Below are positions 52,526-62,152 of a stretch of DNA of 64,000 bases, piece by piece. Positions within the stretch are counted from its first letter, which is position 1. Each line of letters opens with the position of its first letter. The notes below the pieces were generated by a model. The model ran no database searches and was not told where the DNA came from. It worked only from the letters and a program-made list of their open reading frames with translations. Both the position numbers and the translations under genes were made by a program. Origin of the DNA: an uncultured Nitrospirales bacterium (lineage in GTDB: Bacteria > Nitrospirota > Thermodesulfovibrionia > UBA6902 > BMS3Bbin08); assembly GCA_964574765.1 (NCBI GenBank), contig CAZNPC010000001.1, positions 28,720 to 92,719 on the forward strand, written 5' to 3'.

Positions 52526-52915
52526 TCATTTCACCTCAAATCTCTTTCTCCCCCTTACTGCATTCATTAATCCGTTTAGTTTGCGGTCTATCTCTTCTCC
52601 TTTTATTCTTACAGTGTTAGACTCATCTTCAGAAAATAACTTTCTTCGTCGATAAATTTCATTGAGAGTTATCGTTTCGTAAAGAGAGCCTTGAGCAATA
52701 CTTAAATATTGAAGAAACTCTTTCTTGTGTTGACGACCTTTTCCTTCTGCTATGTTTTGTGGTACAGAAGTTACAGACCCTTCCATCTGAGAAACTAAAC
52801 GCATATGTTTATTGAAGGGGATTTTTTCCAGCAATCCCAAAACATAATTTGCCAACTCCATTGCCAATTGCCAAACTTCTAATTTCTCAAATGGAAATAT
52901 ATATATTCCTTTCAT
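52526..52915 (-). CDS. four-helix-bundle protein (23S rRNA intervening-sequence protein family), second copy
   Basis: FEKLEVWQLAMEL ... NIAEGKGRQHKKEF ... AQGSLYE. RBS GGAGGT supplied by the first unit of the adjacent 40-bp tandem repeat. Confidence 0.7.
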   Translation of the reverse strand: MKGIYIFPFEKLEVWQLAMELANYVLGLLEKIPFNKHMRLVSQMEGSVTSVPQNIAEGKGRQHKKEFLQYLSIAQGSLYETITLNEIYRRRKLFSEDESNTVRIKGEEIDRKLNGLMNAVRGRKRFEVK

Positions 52916-52920
52916 ACTTT

Positions 52921-53180
52921 ACCTCCAGCCTCTGCCCTCTGTCCTCTTCTGTTATGTTTTACCTCCAGCCTCTAACCTCTGTCCTCTTCTGTTATGTTTT
53001 ACCTCCAGCCTCTAACCTCTGTCCTCTTCTGTTATGTTTTACCTCCAGCCTCTGCCCTCTGTCCTCTTCTGTTATGTTTTACCTCCAGCCTCTGCCCTCT
53101 GTCCTCTTCTATTATGTTTTACCTCCAACCTCGGCCTCAACCTTGTTTTTATCCTCATCCTCCAACCTCTGTCCGCTTCT
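52921..53180. repeat. 40-bp tandem repeat, 5 near-perfect plus about 1.5 degenerate units (acctccagcctctgccctctgtcctcttctgttatgtttt)
   Basis: Units at 52921, 52961, 53001, 53041, 53081. Units 2-3 carry the tctaacctct variant. The 40-bp period is not a multiple of 3. Lies between gmd and the second 4HB gene. Confidence 0.9.
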
Positions 53181-54545: not shown

Positions 54546-54557
54546 ACAGGCTACCGC
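54546..54557 (-). promoter_or_regulatory. ops-like element GGCGGTAGCCTG (11/12 match to enterobacterial ops GGCGGTAGCGTG) in the leader between the nusG-like gene and gmd
   Basis: Reverse complement of 54546-54557 reads GGCGGTAGCCTG on the sense strand of the minus-strand operon. It lies 110 nt downstream of the NusG-paralogue stop and 190 nt upstream of the gmd start. Confidence 0.45.
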
Positions 54558-54662
54558 CATTCGGGTTATCAAAACCCGTTCTCTTGAACAAGTTCACAGT
54601 TTGCCGCGACATAATAAACTTTAGCCGTTAAAGAGACAGCTAAATTCAATCTCTGTTTATGA

Positions 54663-55154
54663 CTATGCCCTTGTCAATATCGCCCTATCAACGATAACGC
54701 TTGACTGATATTCAATAGCTGACAATAGCAGGACAATCCTTTCGCTTCCATTCACTTCCCTTTCGAATATTCCGGTGAAATCTTTAAGCGGCCCTTCAGC
54801 GATCCTGACCCTGTCTCCGCGTTCAAAATTCACAGGTTTCATAGCTATTACTCCCTCATGTTCCTGCGACTTGATAAAATCAATGATATTCTCTGAAACC
54901 GGCCATGGTTTTTCTGTATCGCCTACTACTTTTTTTATGCCTCTTGTGTACCTTATCATCCATAGATGCTTTTCAGGTTCAAACCGTGCAAATATATAAC
55001 AGGGGAATAATGACGAGACAGTCTCTCTGTATTTTCCCCTTATAAACCTCTTCTGTTGAAGCTGGGGGCTGTAAACCGTCAGTCCCGCCTCTTTCAGGCT
55101 GTTTATGACATATCCTTCTCTTTTAGGTTTTGTATAAATTGAATACCAGTTCAT
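54663..55154 (-). CDS. NusG-family paralogue (RfaH/UpxY/LoaP-like specialised transcription antiterminator)
   Basis: 163 aa. NGN-domain start MNWYSIYTKPKRE...V...L and C-terminal KOW-like GDRVRIAEGPLKDFTGIFE. Sits at the head of the long operon. Confidence 0.7.
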   Translation of the reverse strand: MNWYSIYTKPKREGYVINSLKEAGLTVYSPQLQQKRFIRGKYRETVSSLFPCYIFARFEPEKHLWMIRYTRGIKKVVGDTEKPWPVSENIIDFIKSQEHEGVIAMKPVNFERGDRVRIAEGPLKDFTGIFEREVNGSERIVLLLSAIEYQSSVIVDRAILTRA

Positions 55155-55237: not shown

Positions 55238-55804
55238 TCATTTATTTACCGGATATATACTTTTTATTAATTCCTTATCAACCCCAAGGGCTAGTAATTT
55301 TTGATACACGCTGTCCCTTCTCATATGCGTGGTGATAATTATGTAATCAAAATCAACTTCATTGACATTGCCAAAGGGCATAACAACTGTTTTGAAAAAT
55401 TTCCTGCCTTTTCCCTCATCATCCAATACGCCCAGAAAATTTAGATTACACTCCTGAAGAGACAGGTATGCAATCTCTGCAACCTCATCAGCTCCTGCAA
55501 ATACGACTCTCTTGACGCCACTATCCTGTAGTTTGATGAATAACTGCCTGAAATCCCTTCTTGCCTCACGGAATACCCTGTTATAGTTTTGCAGAAGATG
55601 GTATGTTAAACGGCTTTTTTCAGTAAAGCCCTTTGCAGTGAGAAAGTATGCATATCTTTTGGATGGAATATTCTTTATTGTTACAAAGCCCTTTGAGATA
55701 AGGTTTTTTATGTACGAATTAACAAGACCGAGTGCCAAATTCAGTCTTTTACTCAAATCTCTTTGAGATAGAGACTCGCCCCTTGAAATTTCATCAAGTA
55801 GCAT
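55238..55804 (-). CDS. winged-helix DNA-binding protein with C-terminal Rossmann-like (CoA_binding_3 / sugar-transferase N-domain-like) domain, putative locus regulator
   Basis: N-terminal wHTH (LSQRDLSKRLNLALGLVNSYIKNLISKGFV). C-terminal KRVVFAGADEVAEIAYL...NFLGVLDDEGKG...VDFDYIIITT pattern. Start set at ATG 55804. The GTG start at 55864 lies inside the conserved palindromic operator. Confidence 0.5.
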   Translation of the reverse strand: MLLDEISRGESLSQRDLSKRLNLALGLVNSYIKNLISKGFVTIKNIPSKRYAYFLTAKGFTEKSRLTYHLLQNYNRVFREARRDFRQLFIKLQDSGVKRVVFAGADEVAEIAYLSLQECNLNFLGVLDDEGKGRKFFKTVVMPFGNVNEVDFDYIIITTHMRRDSVYQKLLALGVDKELIKSIYPVNK

Positions 55805-55808
55805 TAAA

Positions 55809-55915
55809 GACTTGTAACCATCCTGATTATCAGGCTTTTTATCGTTCAGATTGTGAACGTTCACAATTTGAACATATCACATTTTAAATCAATTGTCAAG
55901 TAAAAAAAAGGAGGG
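55809..55915 (-). promoter_or_regulatory. sigma70-like promoter (TTGACA-N17-TGaTATGTT) with the 12-bp perfect palindrome GTGAACGTTCAC at about +1, upstream of the regulator/nusG-like genes; copy 2 of a duplicated module
   Basis: Minus-strand read: ccttttttttacTTGACAattgatttaaaatgTGaTATGTTcaaattGTGAACGTTCACaatctgaacgat. About 90% identical to 34449-34555 over about 107 bp. Confidence 0.55.
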
Positions 55916-60157: not shown

Positions 60158-60880
60158 TTACTTGTTATGACATGTGAGGCACAAGAAACTGTTGTCGTTG
60201 CTAAATCTCAGGAACGGCTCAAATTCGTTGTCGTGAACATTATGACAGCTTCCGCACTCAACTGTATAATTACCTCCGTTGGCAAACAACGGTACTGTCT
60301 TAAGGGTCCAGTATCCTGTAACCGTTGATTCACCTGAATCAATTGGCTGTAGATCAGGGTCTGCTGTAGGTGCAGGACCTGATAAATAATTCATACTAAT
60401 CGGATGATCATCTGCCAGAGACGTTCCAATTAATCCAGACCCGTTAAGGATAGCGCCACCAAAACCACCGGTAAGCCAACCTCCTACAATTGTGTTCATA
60501 CCGGGAACATAATTATCTGGCGAAGGATTATTCACTGAGTCGATTGCCACAGTACCATCATGACAACTCAGACATGCCCTTGAAACCCCGGATGGCTGCA
60601 TATCTGCACCATCTCCGACCATACTTCCGAATGGGTCTCCGTAAACAGTATAGTTTGAAACTGCCGAATCTGCCCGGTTCCAAAGGGCTGCTGTTGTAGT
60701 TGATTGGTGAGGAGTATGACAGAACACACAGACCTCTTGGGTGCCTGTAGAAGTCATCTGCTCAGGCAACAGCATATTGTGCCGACTATTAGAAACGTTA
60801 GATGCATAGACCACAAAAGAAGCGCCTATTGCCAGCAAAATTATTATTCCTACTGATAAAGCTTTTTTCATTGTACTCAC
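60158..60880 (-). CDS. secreted tetrahaem c-type cytochrome, paralogue of the N-terminal region of the 5458-7695 cytochrome
   Basis: Four CXXCH (CVFCHTPH, CLSCHDGTVAIDSV, CGSCHNVH, CLTCHNK). Signal peptide. CLSCHDGTVAI block identical to the first cytochrome. Confidence 0.75.
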   Translation of the reverse strand: MSTMKKALSVGIIILLAIGASFVVYASNVSNSRHNMLLPEQMTSTGTQEVCVFCHTPHQSTTTAALWNRADSAVSNYTVYGDPFGSMVGDGADMQPSGVSRACLSCHDGTVAIDSVNNPSPDNYVPGMNTIVGGWLTGGFGGAILNGSGLIGTSLADDHPISMNYLSGPAPTADPDLQPIDSGESTVTGYWTLKTVPLFANGGNYTVECGSCHNVHDNEFEPFLRFSNDNSFLCLTCHNK

Positions 60881-61090
60881 CTCCCTTAGCTTTTAGAGTT
60901 TTTTGTTTTATTTAGACTGACTGATTATACGCAAGATACGTGCCATTGTCTTCGAGTAGGAATTATAATCATAATATTGTTTAGAATCAATGGGTTATGT
61001 CCCACACCATAAGCCTCACTGAACCTTTTAGAACTTCTGCTTTTCTGTGTCTTTTTACTCATAAAGTGTGATTTAACTCACTATCCAGGC

Positions 61091-62152
61091 TTATTTTGAC
61101 TCCTGACTGATCTTATATTTCTCTCCCATATACTGAAAAATATTGATCCTTCTGTTATATTGGTCAGCAACGTAAATCCTATCGTTCTCATCAATATGCA
61201 TACCGGCGGGCAGCCAGAAACCACCCCTGCCTGTACCCACACTTCCGAATGCTAACAAAAGCTGGCCTTCATTGTCAAATACTTGAACATTATCAAAGGC
61301 GGCATCAACAACATAAATATGCCCCTCAGAATCAAGTGCAACTCCTTTAGGTCTTGCAAAACTCCCGGGGCCGTCTCCCAAAGACCCGAATTTTGATAAA
61401 AAAACACCGTCAGGATCGAATATCTGTATCCTGAAATTCATGCTGTCACTGACGTATACCTTGCCATCCTGATCAACAAATATGTTAACCGGAAGATTGA
61501 ATTCTCCGTCCTCAATGCCCTCTTCCCCGAAATTAAAGAGAAATTGTCCATCCATGCTGAATACATCAACAAGGTGTGCCTTTATGTCCACTACATAAAC
61601 TCTGCCAAGCGTATTGTTTACAGCTATGCCGCCGGGTCTTTCAAACTGGCCCATTGCACCGAGGACATGAGAGAACTTGCCATCCGGAGTATATACTACG
61701 ACCCTTTTAACCACGGCATCTGCAACATACATATTCCCTTTGGAATCAGATGCCACACCTATAGGTTTTCTAAGCGCGCCTGCCCCCGATTCTCCAAGAT
61801 AAAAAGACTTCCCCTCATTAAAATCATAAACAGCAACGAGCCCGGCCTGTGTATCCGATACAAGCATTCTTCCTTTGGTCATATTAACGTTATTAGGCTT
61901 CATAAGCAATTTAGTTCTTTCTTCCTCACCAACCACTATTCTTAAAAACGCCTTGGCAAATGATTCTTTTTTCACAGCATCCGCTCCTCTTACCCAGCCG
62001 ATCCATTTAATACGCGGCTCCTCCGGGGGAAGGGGCCAATACAGATCAGCCTGCTTTACAGTTTTGCCTCCGCAGGCTGTCAGAATCAAAAACAGAAAAA
62101 GGAAACCCCATGAGAAAAACGGAAATGTTTCTTTGCGAATAATCGTCATCAT
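61091..62152 (-). CDS. NHL-repeat beta-propeller lipoprotein
   Basis: Lipobox LILTAC after the signal peptide. Six NHL-type repeats (MYVADA, VYVVDI, VYVSDS...RIQIF, IYVVDA, IYVADQ...RINIF). Confidence 0.75.
   Translation of the reverse strand: MMTIIRKETFPFFSWGFLFLFLILTACGGKTVKQADLYWPLPPEEPRIKWIGWVRGADAVKKESFAKAFLRIVVGEEERTKLLMKPNNVNMTKGRMLVSDTQAGLVAVYDFNEGKSFYLGESGAGALRKPIGVASDSKGNMYVADAVVKRVVVYTPDGKFSHVLGAMGQFERPGGIAVNNTLGRVYVVDIKAHLVDVFSMDGQFLFNFGEEGIEDGEFNLPVNIFVDQDGKVYVSDSMNFRIQIFDPDGVFLSKFGSLGDGPGSFARPKGVALDSEGHIYVVDAAFDNVQVFDNEGQLLLAFGSVGTGRGGFWLPAGMHIDENDRIYVADQYNRRINIFQYMGEKYKISQESK

Follow-up and report, generated by a model that had tools for sequence, protein, structure and literature searches.

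The DNA analysed here is a stretch of 64,000 nucleotides from an uncultured Nitrospirales bacterium (hereafter the window), and this study concerns a regulator gene on its minus strand that encodes a DNA-binding protein and lies at a glycan operon. The list of open reading frames (ORFs), a promoter scan and a structure model locate the gene, its promoter P1, the putative operator O1 and the domains of the protein as follows.

55238..55864, minus strand: coding sequence of the regulator, 208 amino acids, GTG start at 55864, stop codon at 55238-55240 (ORF list).
55871..55899, minus strand: promoter P1, TTGACA (55899-55894), a 17-nucleotide spacer and TG-n-TATGTT (-10 hexamer at 55876-55871) (promoter scan).
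55844..55873, no strand: putative operator O1, two abutting GTTCA-N5-TGAAC units forming a 30-bp palindrome, -9 to +21.
55640..55834, minus strand: winged helix-turn-helix (wHTH), residues 11-75, three helices and a beta-hairpin wing.
55523..55636, minus strand: single long helix, residues 77-114, probably a dimerisation element as in short PadR proteins and Sso10a.
55250..55519, minus strand: C-terminal mini-Rossmann-like domain, residues 116-205.
55484-55501, minus strand: equivalent of the glycine loop, F-A-G-A-D-E, residues 122-127.

The peptides from which a sequence-only reading of this DNA had argued, KRVVFAGADEVAEIAYL, NFLGVLDDEGKG, VDFDYIIITT and LGV, all lie within the minus-strand ORF that ends at 55238 and belong to the C-terminal half of the regulator. 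That reading had identified the correct ORF but had started the gene at ATG 55804 (M21), and GTG 55864 lies 60 nucleotides, or 20 codons, upstream. In an alignment of 41 homologues (58-69% identity) the proteins begin with MNV(H/Q/R)x(L/M)N at the position of GTG 55864, and N7, D15, Y17, K18, S19 and L20 are invariant or nearly so, giving the motif ...D-Y-K-S-L. The first helix of the modelled wHTH comprises residues 11-26 and includes the part that precedes M21, and GTG 55864 sits exactly 7 nucleotides past the -10 hexamer. Among 34 close loci this position is occupied by ATG in 33 and by GTG in one; the window itself has GTG. The ATG start is probably 20 codons short, because the conserved N-terminus, the first wHTH helix and the promoter spacing all fit GTG 55864, which is probably the true start of the regulator.

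P1 shows 10 of 12 promoter matches together with the TG of an extended -10 element, after which come six bases and then the GTG, so that the predicted +1 falls on 55864, the first base of the start codon. For comparison, 177 stretches of a species-representative genome collection were found to encode a relative of the regulator, and locus counts given here out of 80 refer to the best 80 of these 177 stretches (748 kb), which come from Nitrospirota/Thermodesulfovibrionia, Nitrospinota and Thermodesulfobacteriota ('Deltaproteobacteria'). The arrangement TTGAC-N17(+/-1)-TAnnnT-N6/7-NTGAAC was present in 74 of the 80 loci, and a tetramer resembling a Shine-Dalgarno (SD) sequence was found 4-16 nucleotides upstream of the start in none of 78 cassettes. 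Because the spacing from promoter to start is shared and SD-like motifs are missing in all 78 cassettes, the start codon can be equated with the predicted +1. The regulator mRNA is apparently leaderless, with a transcription start site (TSS) that we deduce from promoter geometry.

The sequence-only reading had placed the gene at a glycan operon and next to its own palindrome, and both statements are borne out: the palindrome at 55844-55873 consists of two GTTCA-N5-TGAAC units. These units occupy positions -9 to +6 and +7 to +21, so that O1 overlaps the -10 hexamer, the predicted TSS and codons 1-7 and hence the core promoter of the regulator itself. Within the window, exact GTTCA-N5-TGAAC occurs in just four copies, which form two doublets at two promoters, P1 and the promoter P2 described below. 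When up to one mismatch was permitted, seven matches were obtained versus 2.07 expected, a number reached in 0 of 100 shuffles. In the 80 related loci 138 exact copies were counted, whereas chance predicts about 0.7. Of these copies, 130 fall between -150 and +60 relative to the regulator start, and 76 loci contain one or more. The consensus reads (t/g)(a/t)a(t/c)GTTCA(t/a)aa(t/c)aTGAAC(a/g), and the centre-to-centre distance of its half-sites, 10 bp, is what a wHTH dimer would be expected to need.

In close relatives the double site stands at -9 and +6. In deltaproteobacterial relatives one box covers the -10 element and the start (-9 to +6) and a second lies just upstream of the -35 element, about 50 bp away, and even a fused relative with 37% identity keeps the box GTTCATCAGATGAAC over its -10 element. 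The site tracks the regulator gene over 30-100% protein identity and two phyla. Another promoter layout occurs in the family at L069:2630-2757 and L074:3403-3530, where three boxes follow one another at intervals of about 47-66 bp upstream of a homologue with a seemingly conventional leader and an MDNNKK start.

In the 34 close loci codon 2 is AAC, codon 3 is GTT and codon 7 is AAC without exception (34/34 each), whereas in the rest of the same genes AAC accounts for 44% of Asn codons and GTT for 35% of Val codons. Codon 4 encodes His or Gln (CAN), and codon 6 encodes Leu, Met or Val (NTG). Since codons 2, 3 and 7 are fixed beyond the usage elsewhere while codons 4 and 6 vary in the amino acid encoded, the first codons are constrained at the level of DNA and not of protein. 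Such a constraint on codons 1-7 agrees with the structure model, in which residues 1-12 are disordered.

The AlphaFold model used throughout was built from a 97-sequence alignment comprising two clades and has a mean predicted local distance difference test score (pLDDT) of 88.9. It replaced an earlier model from a shallow alignment, in which only the C-terminal domain was resolved and the wHTH was poor (pLDDT about 55). Residues 1-12 are followed by the wHTH (11-75), the long helix (77-114) and an alpha/beta domain (119-205), in which D148 terminates strand 2. Of the Pfam models for such helix-turn-helix proteins, only the generic HTH_24 exceeded its cut-off (39.1 versus 21.9 bits, E 5.5e-10, residues 20-62), whereas MarR (PF01047; 21.2 versus 24.6 bits) and MarR_2 (PF12802; 23.7 versus 27 bits) stayed below their gathering scores. 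NCBIfam TIGR04176 matched residues 20-108 with E 2.7e-15, and its score of 56.3 bits did not reach the curated cut-off of 88 bits.

A two-domain architecture of wHTH and small Rossmann-like domain, as proposed from the sequence alone, is therefore supported by the Pfam and NCBIfam matches and by the model. In its details the proposal needs revision at both ends of the protein. The N-terminus had been called MarR/Rex-like; it is MarR-like, more precisely PadR/MarR/TIGR04176-like, and by sequence it is not Rex-like. The C-terminal domain had been assigned to the CoA_binding_3 type: its fold indeed resembles the N-terminal domains of WbpM/WbaP-type and PglD/NeuD-type enzymes, but its nearest relative is PF22674 (PDB entry 2g6t) and not CoA_binding_3 or PglD_N. 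In fold comparisons, which were made against the PDB, the modelled C-terminal domain shares the fold of the N-terminal domain of 2g6t. An MptE-like gene of the window (35115-35951) was considered as a further 2g6t relative and rejected, as it gave no PDB match.

The regulator belongs to a large family. A protein search returned at least 2238 homologues, which share the two-domain layout at a length of about 190-220 amino acids (about 206-244 among those listed), and an exhaustive HMMER search against 50%-identity representatives yielded 976 clusters at E<=1e-10, mostly from Nitrospirota and Desulfobacterota. The full-length two-domain match was found in 92 of the 150 best clusters. A distant clade includes the cultured Desulfosarcina alkanivorans, D. 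ovata and D. variabilis. Homologues bear generic names such as 'DNA-binding MarR family transcriptional regulator', no curated full-length model for a fusion of wHTH and C2185_N-type domain was found in Pfam or NCBIfam, and neither homologue listings nor literature provided a characterised member. Literature searches for C2185, CAC2185 and TIGR04176 returned nothing useful, and those for 'MarR family EPS-associated' an incidental mention only. To this extent the view that the fusion is not a characterised family was right. However, the Pfam domain combination is already present in thousands of database proteins, so that what is lacking for this architecture is study, not precedent.

In a few members the regulator is joined to a sugar-1-phosphate nucleotidyltransferase. 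One such relative, P0158/P0271, has 477 amino acids and is 37% identical to the regulator over the corresponding part; it is found on two independent assemblies inside a nucleoside diphosphate (NDP)-sugar cluster (L081:6001-7434 and L082:6001-7434), where genes for DegT, an E1_dh/transketolase-like protein and an epimerase are neighbours. The protein of the window might alternatively have been a truncated remnant of a sugar transferase, with a phosphotransferase domain encoded further downstream. This possibility, raised by the sequence-only reading itself, was ruled out: the downstream gene encodes a NusG paralogue, and the homologues keep the same short two-domain layout of about 200 residues. 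Because the family is large and uniform in size, a decayed enzyme is excluded.

About 21 kb downstream of P1 the promoter and its doublet of boxes recur.

34511..34539, minus strand: promoter P2, TTGACA-17-TG-n-TATGTT-caaatt-ATGAACGTTCAAAATCTGAAC..., predicted +1 at 34504.
34484..34513, no strand: putative operator O2, two abutting exact GTTCA-N5-TGAAC units, -9 to +21, geometry as in O1.
34415..34504, minus strand: apparently leaderless 29-codon mini-ORF MNVQNLNDKKPENQDGYKSFTDEGEQDVR (followed by its stop codon), which keeps the first 19 residues of the regulator (read from the sequence and the alignment of P1 with P2).
33580..34425, minus strand: Wzm2, ABC-2 permease, first structural gene of the P2 operon (PF01061, E 3e-14).

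When P1 and P2 are aligned, the -35 element and the segment from -14 to +57 are about 93% identical, whereas the 17-nucleotide spacer has largely diverged. The stop codon of the mini-ORF overlaps the SD-preceded ATG (34425) of wzm2; the longest ORF of this gene begins at 34461, and 34425, behind GAAGGAG, is its likely start. The P2 operon continues after wzm2 with a PF05635 gene, wzt2 and genes for a sulfotransferase, glycosyltransferases, a radical S-adenosylmethionine (SAM)/SPASM enzyme and an AsnB homologue. Extra cassettes near the regulator were also detected in loci L041, L063, L069 and L072, and those of L063 and L072 keep the N-terminal codons of the regulator up to a D/G-Y-R-S/V motif. 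Mini-ORFs after duplicated cassettes (34415-34504 in the window, L063:4641, L072:4397 and L081:5937-5975) retain, in three lineages, 14-19 N-terminal regulator codons up to (D/G)-Y-(K/R)-(S/V). In the window, codons 8-19 behind P1 and P2 differ by two synonymous changes and one conservative change. Retention of these codons may reflect selection on the peptide or on the early coding region, or else gene conversion. Between the MptE-like gene and P2 (34540-35115) there are gene fragments, for example a piece resembling a glycosyltransferase of family 2 (GT2); these suggest that the second glycan module was attached here, at a recombination junction.

On the P1 side the regulator is followed by an antitermination-like module.

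54663..55154, minus strand: RfaH-like NusG paralogue, 163 amino acids, 83 nucleotides past the regulator (Pfam NusG, E 2e-17).
54547..54558, minus strand: ops-like element GGCGGTAGCCTG, in the 310-nucleotide leader between the RfaH-like gene and gmd.

The best NCBIfam match of the paralogue is RfaH (TIGR01955; E 3.7e-31), with 108 bits and therefore below the 144.5-bit cut-off. The element GGCGGTAGCCTG fits GGCGGTAGnnTG, which we take to be the E. coli ops consensus. An exact ops-like element in the same orientation, 100-190 nucleotides after the regulator or about 80-100 nucleotides after the paralogue, was found in 21 of the 80 loci, and one with at most one mismatch in 33 of 73. In the literature on RfaH evolution that was searched, Nitrospirota or Desulfo- taxa were not mentioned. 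A terminator-like hairpin (54620-54644, minus strand; 9-bp stem, weak T tract) lies between the RfaH-like gene and the ops-like element and is a possible attenuation point ahead of the site where the antiterminator would load.

Behind P1 the order of genes is regulator, RfaH-like NusG paralogue, gmd, a PF05635 gene, an epimerase gene, wzm1 and wzt1, then genes for WbqC, methyltransferases, two DegT aminotransferases, a sulfotransferase, GT2 enzymes and others. The regulator is surrounded by glycan genes both in the window and in a set of 64 related loci. In the latter the gene 3' of the regulator codes for a Wzm permease (17 loci), an NDP-sugar dehydratase/epimerase (12), a UDP-sugar dehydrogenase (6), a NusG paralogue (6), a nucleotidyltransferase (5) or a flippase.

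Taken together, these data suggest the following mechanism. The regulator, with a PadR/MarR-type wHTH, one long dimerising helix and a C-terminal mini-Rossmann domain of the C2185_N type, would bind as dimers to the 15-bp inverted repeat GTTCA-N5-TGAAC. As the pair of adjoining repeats reaches from -9 to +21 of a strong promoter with extended -10 element, covering the edge of that element, the start and the first seven codons, bound regulator would occlude RNA polymerase and exert negative autoregulation. Transcription from P1 is predicted to run on through the RfaH-like gene and the ops site into a glycan operon of at least 20 kb, and the near-identical cassette 21 kb downstream would subject a second Wzm/Wzt glycan module to control by the same regulator. 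In this manner the regulator would occlude two strong promoters that drive two glycan modules dependent on ATP-binding cassette (ABC) transporters. Autorepression is the best supported part of this mechanism: we consider it very probable that the regulator protein binds the GTTCA-N5-TGAAC sites, and probable that it represses. The reading as a whole, a one-component repressor of an uncharacterised family that autoregulates through GTTCA-N5-TGAAC, is in our judgement reasonably probable.

Some observations weigh against this reading. GTG is a poor initiator of leaderless messages in E. coli, and GTG is the start found in the window. The rml genes immediately upstream of the regulator carry no operator. 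Finally, the second box of the deltaproteobacterial relatives, upstream of the -35 element, stands at a position that could also serve activation.

The most conserved residues of the C-terminal domain are G124, E127/E130, D148, G153, F156 and D173; they lie at the glycine turn, at the end of strand 2 and at the start of strand 4, which are the canonical positions of a nucleotide site, and the family consensus for the turn, G-A-G-E-x-A, fits the GxGxxA fingerprint. A role as a sensor is favoured by these conserved positions, by the fusions to sugar-1-phosphate nucleotidyltransferases and by a precedent, the fold-related domain of unknown function (DUF) of WbaP, which dimerises and binds UMP, UDP and UTP, being stabilised by them (PMC10942596).

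Several results count against a sensor. The partial match of PF22674 (C2185-like_N) to residues 160-198 scored 19.5 bits versus a gathering score of 27 (E 1.2e-3); the same model matched just 3 of 88 diverse family members at E<=0.01, whereas a precomputed PF22674 match is listed for most homologues. When the PDB was searched with a family profile, 2g6t was retrieved at a marginal E of 0.018, with a persuasive alignment of motifs, and PerB of the NeuD/PglD family at a non-significant E of 2.5; PF13727 (CoA_binding_3), PF17836 (PglD_N) and PF02629 (CoA_binding) gave no Pfam match at E<=1. Moreover, in the clade of the window the second glycine of this turn has given way to an invariant Asp (F-A-G-A-D-E, versus G-x-G-E in the family). 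As this Asp and Glu127 are acidic residues where Rossmann folds usually take the pyrophosphate, a canonical dinucleotide or NDP ligand is doubtful here. The sequence-only reading had proposed a ligand of the nucleotide-sugar or CoA type; the indirect evidence on this point is mixed, and on balance a nucleotide-type ligand of the C-terminal domain is conceivable but somewhat unlikely.

The strongest competing explanation retains the autorepressor and gives the C-terminal domain a purely oligomerising function: it would join two dimers on the 30-bp site without any small molecule, and the circuit would amount to simple autoregulation or dosage control. The occurrence of operators in abutting pairs or in pairs about 50 bp apart would suit a dimer of dimers, the glycine turn is degenerate (G-A-D-E) in the clade of the window, and in WbaP it is the DUF that supplies most of the dimer contacts (PMC10942596). 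Stand-alone relatives consisting of wHTH plus helix (TIGR04176, 105 amino acids) also do without the C-terminal domain. However, conservation is concentrated at the canonical nucleotide-site positions and not on one surface, the wider family keeps a GxGxxA-like turn, and nucleotidyltransferase fusions exist. We consider pure oligomerisation a serious alternative, though an unlikely one. Within the autorepressor reading that we prefer, the C-terminal domain most likely fixes the oligomeric state (two dimers per 30-bp site), responds to a nucleotide-type metabolite of the pathway so as to tune DNA binding, or does both.

If the elements are joined, a broader scheme can be drawn, which we put forward tentatively and regard as rather unlikely in its entirety. 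In this scheme the C-terminal domain would sense a nucleotide(-sugar) by-product and so feed the state of the activated-sugar pool back onto whole glycan operons by way of a portable cassette of promoter, operator and leaderless mini-ORF, in which the operator is embedded in the first seven codons, in series with RfaH/ops. The cassette, along with the N-terminal peptide of the regulator, would have been copied to new operons in Nitrospirota and Desulfobacterota. Should the domain prove to be such a sensor, transcription would here respond to the activated-sugar pool by a kind of feedback of which few cases exist, and the orphan C2185_N fold would gain a function.

It is improbable that the regulator acts as an activator or dual regulator of the glycan promoters instead of a repressor. 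The extra deltaproteobacterial box, about 50 bp upstream of the main box and above the -35 element, would be a class I activator position, and some MarR/PadR-like proteins do activate transcription. Against this, the box that is conserved throughout lies across the -10 hexamer and +1, and the promoters already combine a near-consensus -35 element, 17-nucleotide spacing and an extended -10 element; being near-consensus, they should need no activator.

Still less credence is given to a divergent redox sensor of the Rex type, in which NADH/NAD+ on the Rossmann domain would control glycan repression. The plan and size of the protein do match (wHTH plus Rossmann domain, about 210 residues), and the central 16 bp of O1, TTGTGAACGTTCACAA, resembles what we take to be the Rex box consensus. 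However, membership in the Rex family was rejected on both Pfam and PDB profile tests: PF06971 and PF02629 were without match at E<=1 in hmmscan, and no Rex chain appeared at E<=10 when the PDB was searched with the family profile. In addition, there is no GxGxxG, the domain of about 90 residues appears to lack the swapped C-terminal helix, the order of the operator half-sites is opposite to that of Rex boxes, and the context throughout (64 loci) is glycan synthesis and not respiration or fermentation.

That the palindrome is bound by another conserved factor, or works at the RNA level, as a hairpin with which the leaderless message would begin, is hardly credible: +1 to +21 is transcribed and GUUCA-N5-UGAAC can form a hairpin of 5-6 bp, but the site follows the regulator gene across 30-100% identity and two phyla, the boxes of distant relatives (-9 to +6, and upstream of -35) cannot form such an RNA hairpin, the folding of +1 to +65, which is not alike for P1 and P2, is no better than that of shuffles (z about -1.2), and there is no Rfam match. 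The RNA-element reading was dropped on the folding of the 5' ends of both transcripts. A search of the whole window for Rfam families likewise gave none.

Some further features of the window are recorded here. Two paralogous PF05635 genes ('23S rRNA intervening sequence protein', a four-helix bundle) at 52526-52915 and 33081-33461, both on the minus strand, each adjoin a Wzm/Wzt pair, so that there is one per glycan module. Between gmd and the first of them (52918-53136) lies a 40-bp tandem repeat with 5.5 copies of 96% identity. The glycan cluster at 14503-48859 (minus strand) is very large and encodes two sulfotransferases, several methyltransferases, two B12-binding radical-SAM enzymes, a radical-SAM/SPASM enzyme, AsnB, a CMP-type cytidylyltransferase and the MptE-like protein; this gene content suggests heavily modified polysaccharides that are sulfated, methylated and amidated. 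Upstream of rml, and unrelated to the regulator, genes for a multihaem cytochrome (paired CXXCH) and an NHL-repeat beta-propeller are located at 60158-62152 (minus strand).

To our knowledge, how surface-glycan clusters are regulated has hardly been charted beyond model Proteobacteria and Firmicutes. The present locus offers items that can be tested directly, namely a family of about 1,000 sequence clusters, some of them from cultured Desulfosarcina, a 15-bp operator, two target promoters within a single cluster and a predicted leaderless architecture. The operator motif can be used at once for mapping regulons in metagenome-assembled genomes.

Among known systems, Rex proteins (e.g. 5zz5, 3keo and RSP 3wg9) have no detectable sequence homology to the regulator. 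In contrast to Rex, the regulator has a PadR/MarR-type wHTH followed by a long helix and a shorter Rossmann domain without GxGxxG and apparently without swapped C-terminal helix; the half-site order of its operator differs, and its context is glycan synthesis rather than redox metabolism. Closer in sequence are the TIGR04176 proteins ('MarR family EPS-associated transcriptional regulator'), which resemble residues 20-108 of the regulator and are likewise encoded in exopolysaccharide loci. However, they have about 105 amino acids and lack the C-terminal domain, and the regulator scores below the cut-off of that model. Literature searches on the TIGR04176 family and on the regulator family revealed no experimental work. 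In the case of PF22674, the domain is N-terminal in 2g6t (CAC2185, a structural-genomics protein of unknown function with 306 amino acids), whereas the regulator has a C-terminal copy on a DNA-binding protein. Similarly, the N-terminal domains of WbaP/WcaJ, PglF/WbpM (3nkl) and PglD/NeuD/VioB are fused to enzymes and not, as in the regulator, to a DNA-binding domain. Short PadR proteins (PadR-s2) and Sso10a are single-module wHTH proteins of about 100 amino acids, and the Pfam PadR model was not matched by the regulator. In BirA and NadR a regulator is fused to a pathway enzyme, an arrangement shown here by the fused relatives P0158 and P0271 only, whereas the protein of the window is unfused. 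As we read it, the regulator is a one-component wHTH repressor with a Rossmann-type accessory domain from a large but unstudied family, to which the present work adds a precise operator, an apparently leaderless cassette that has its operator in codons and recurs within glycan clusters, and a downstream RfaH/ops module.

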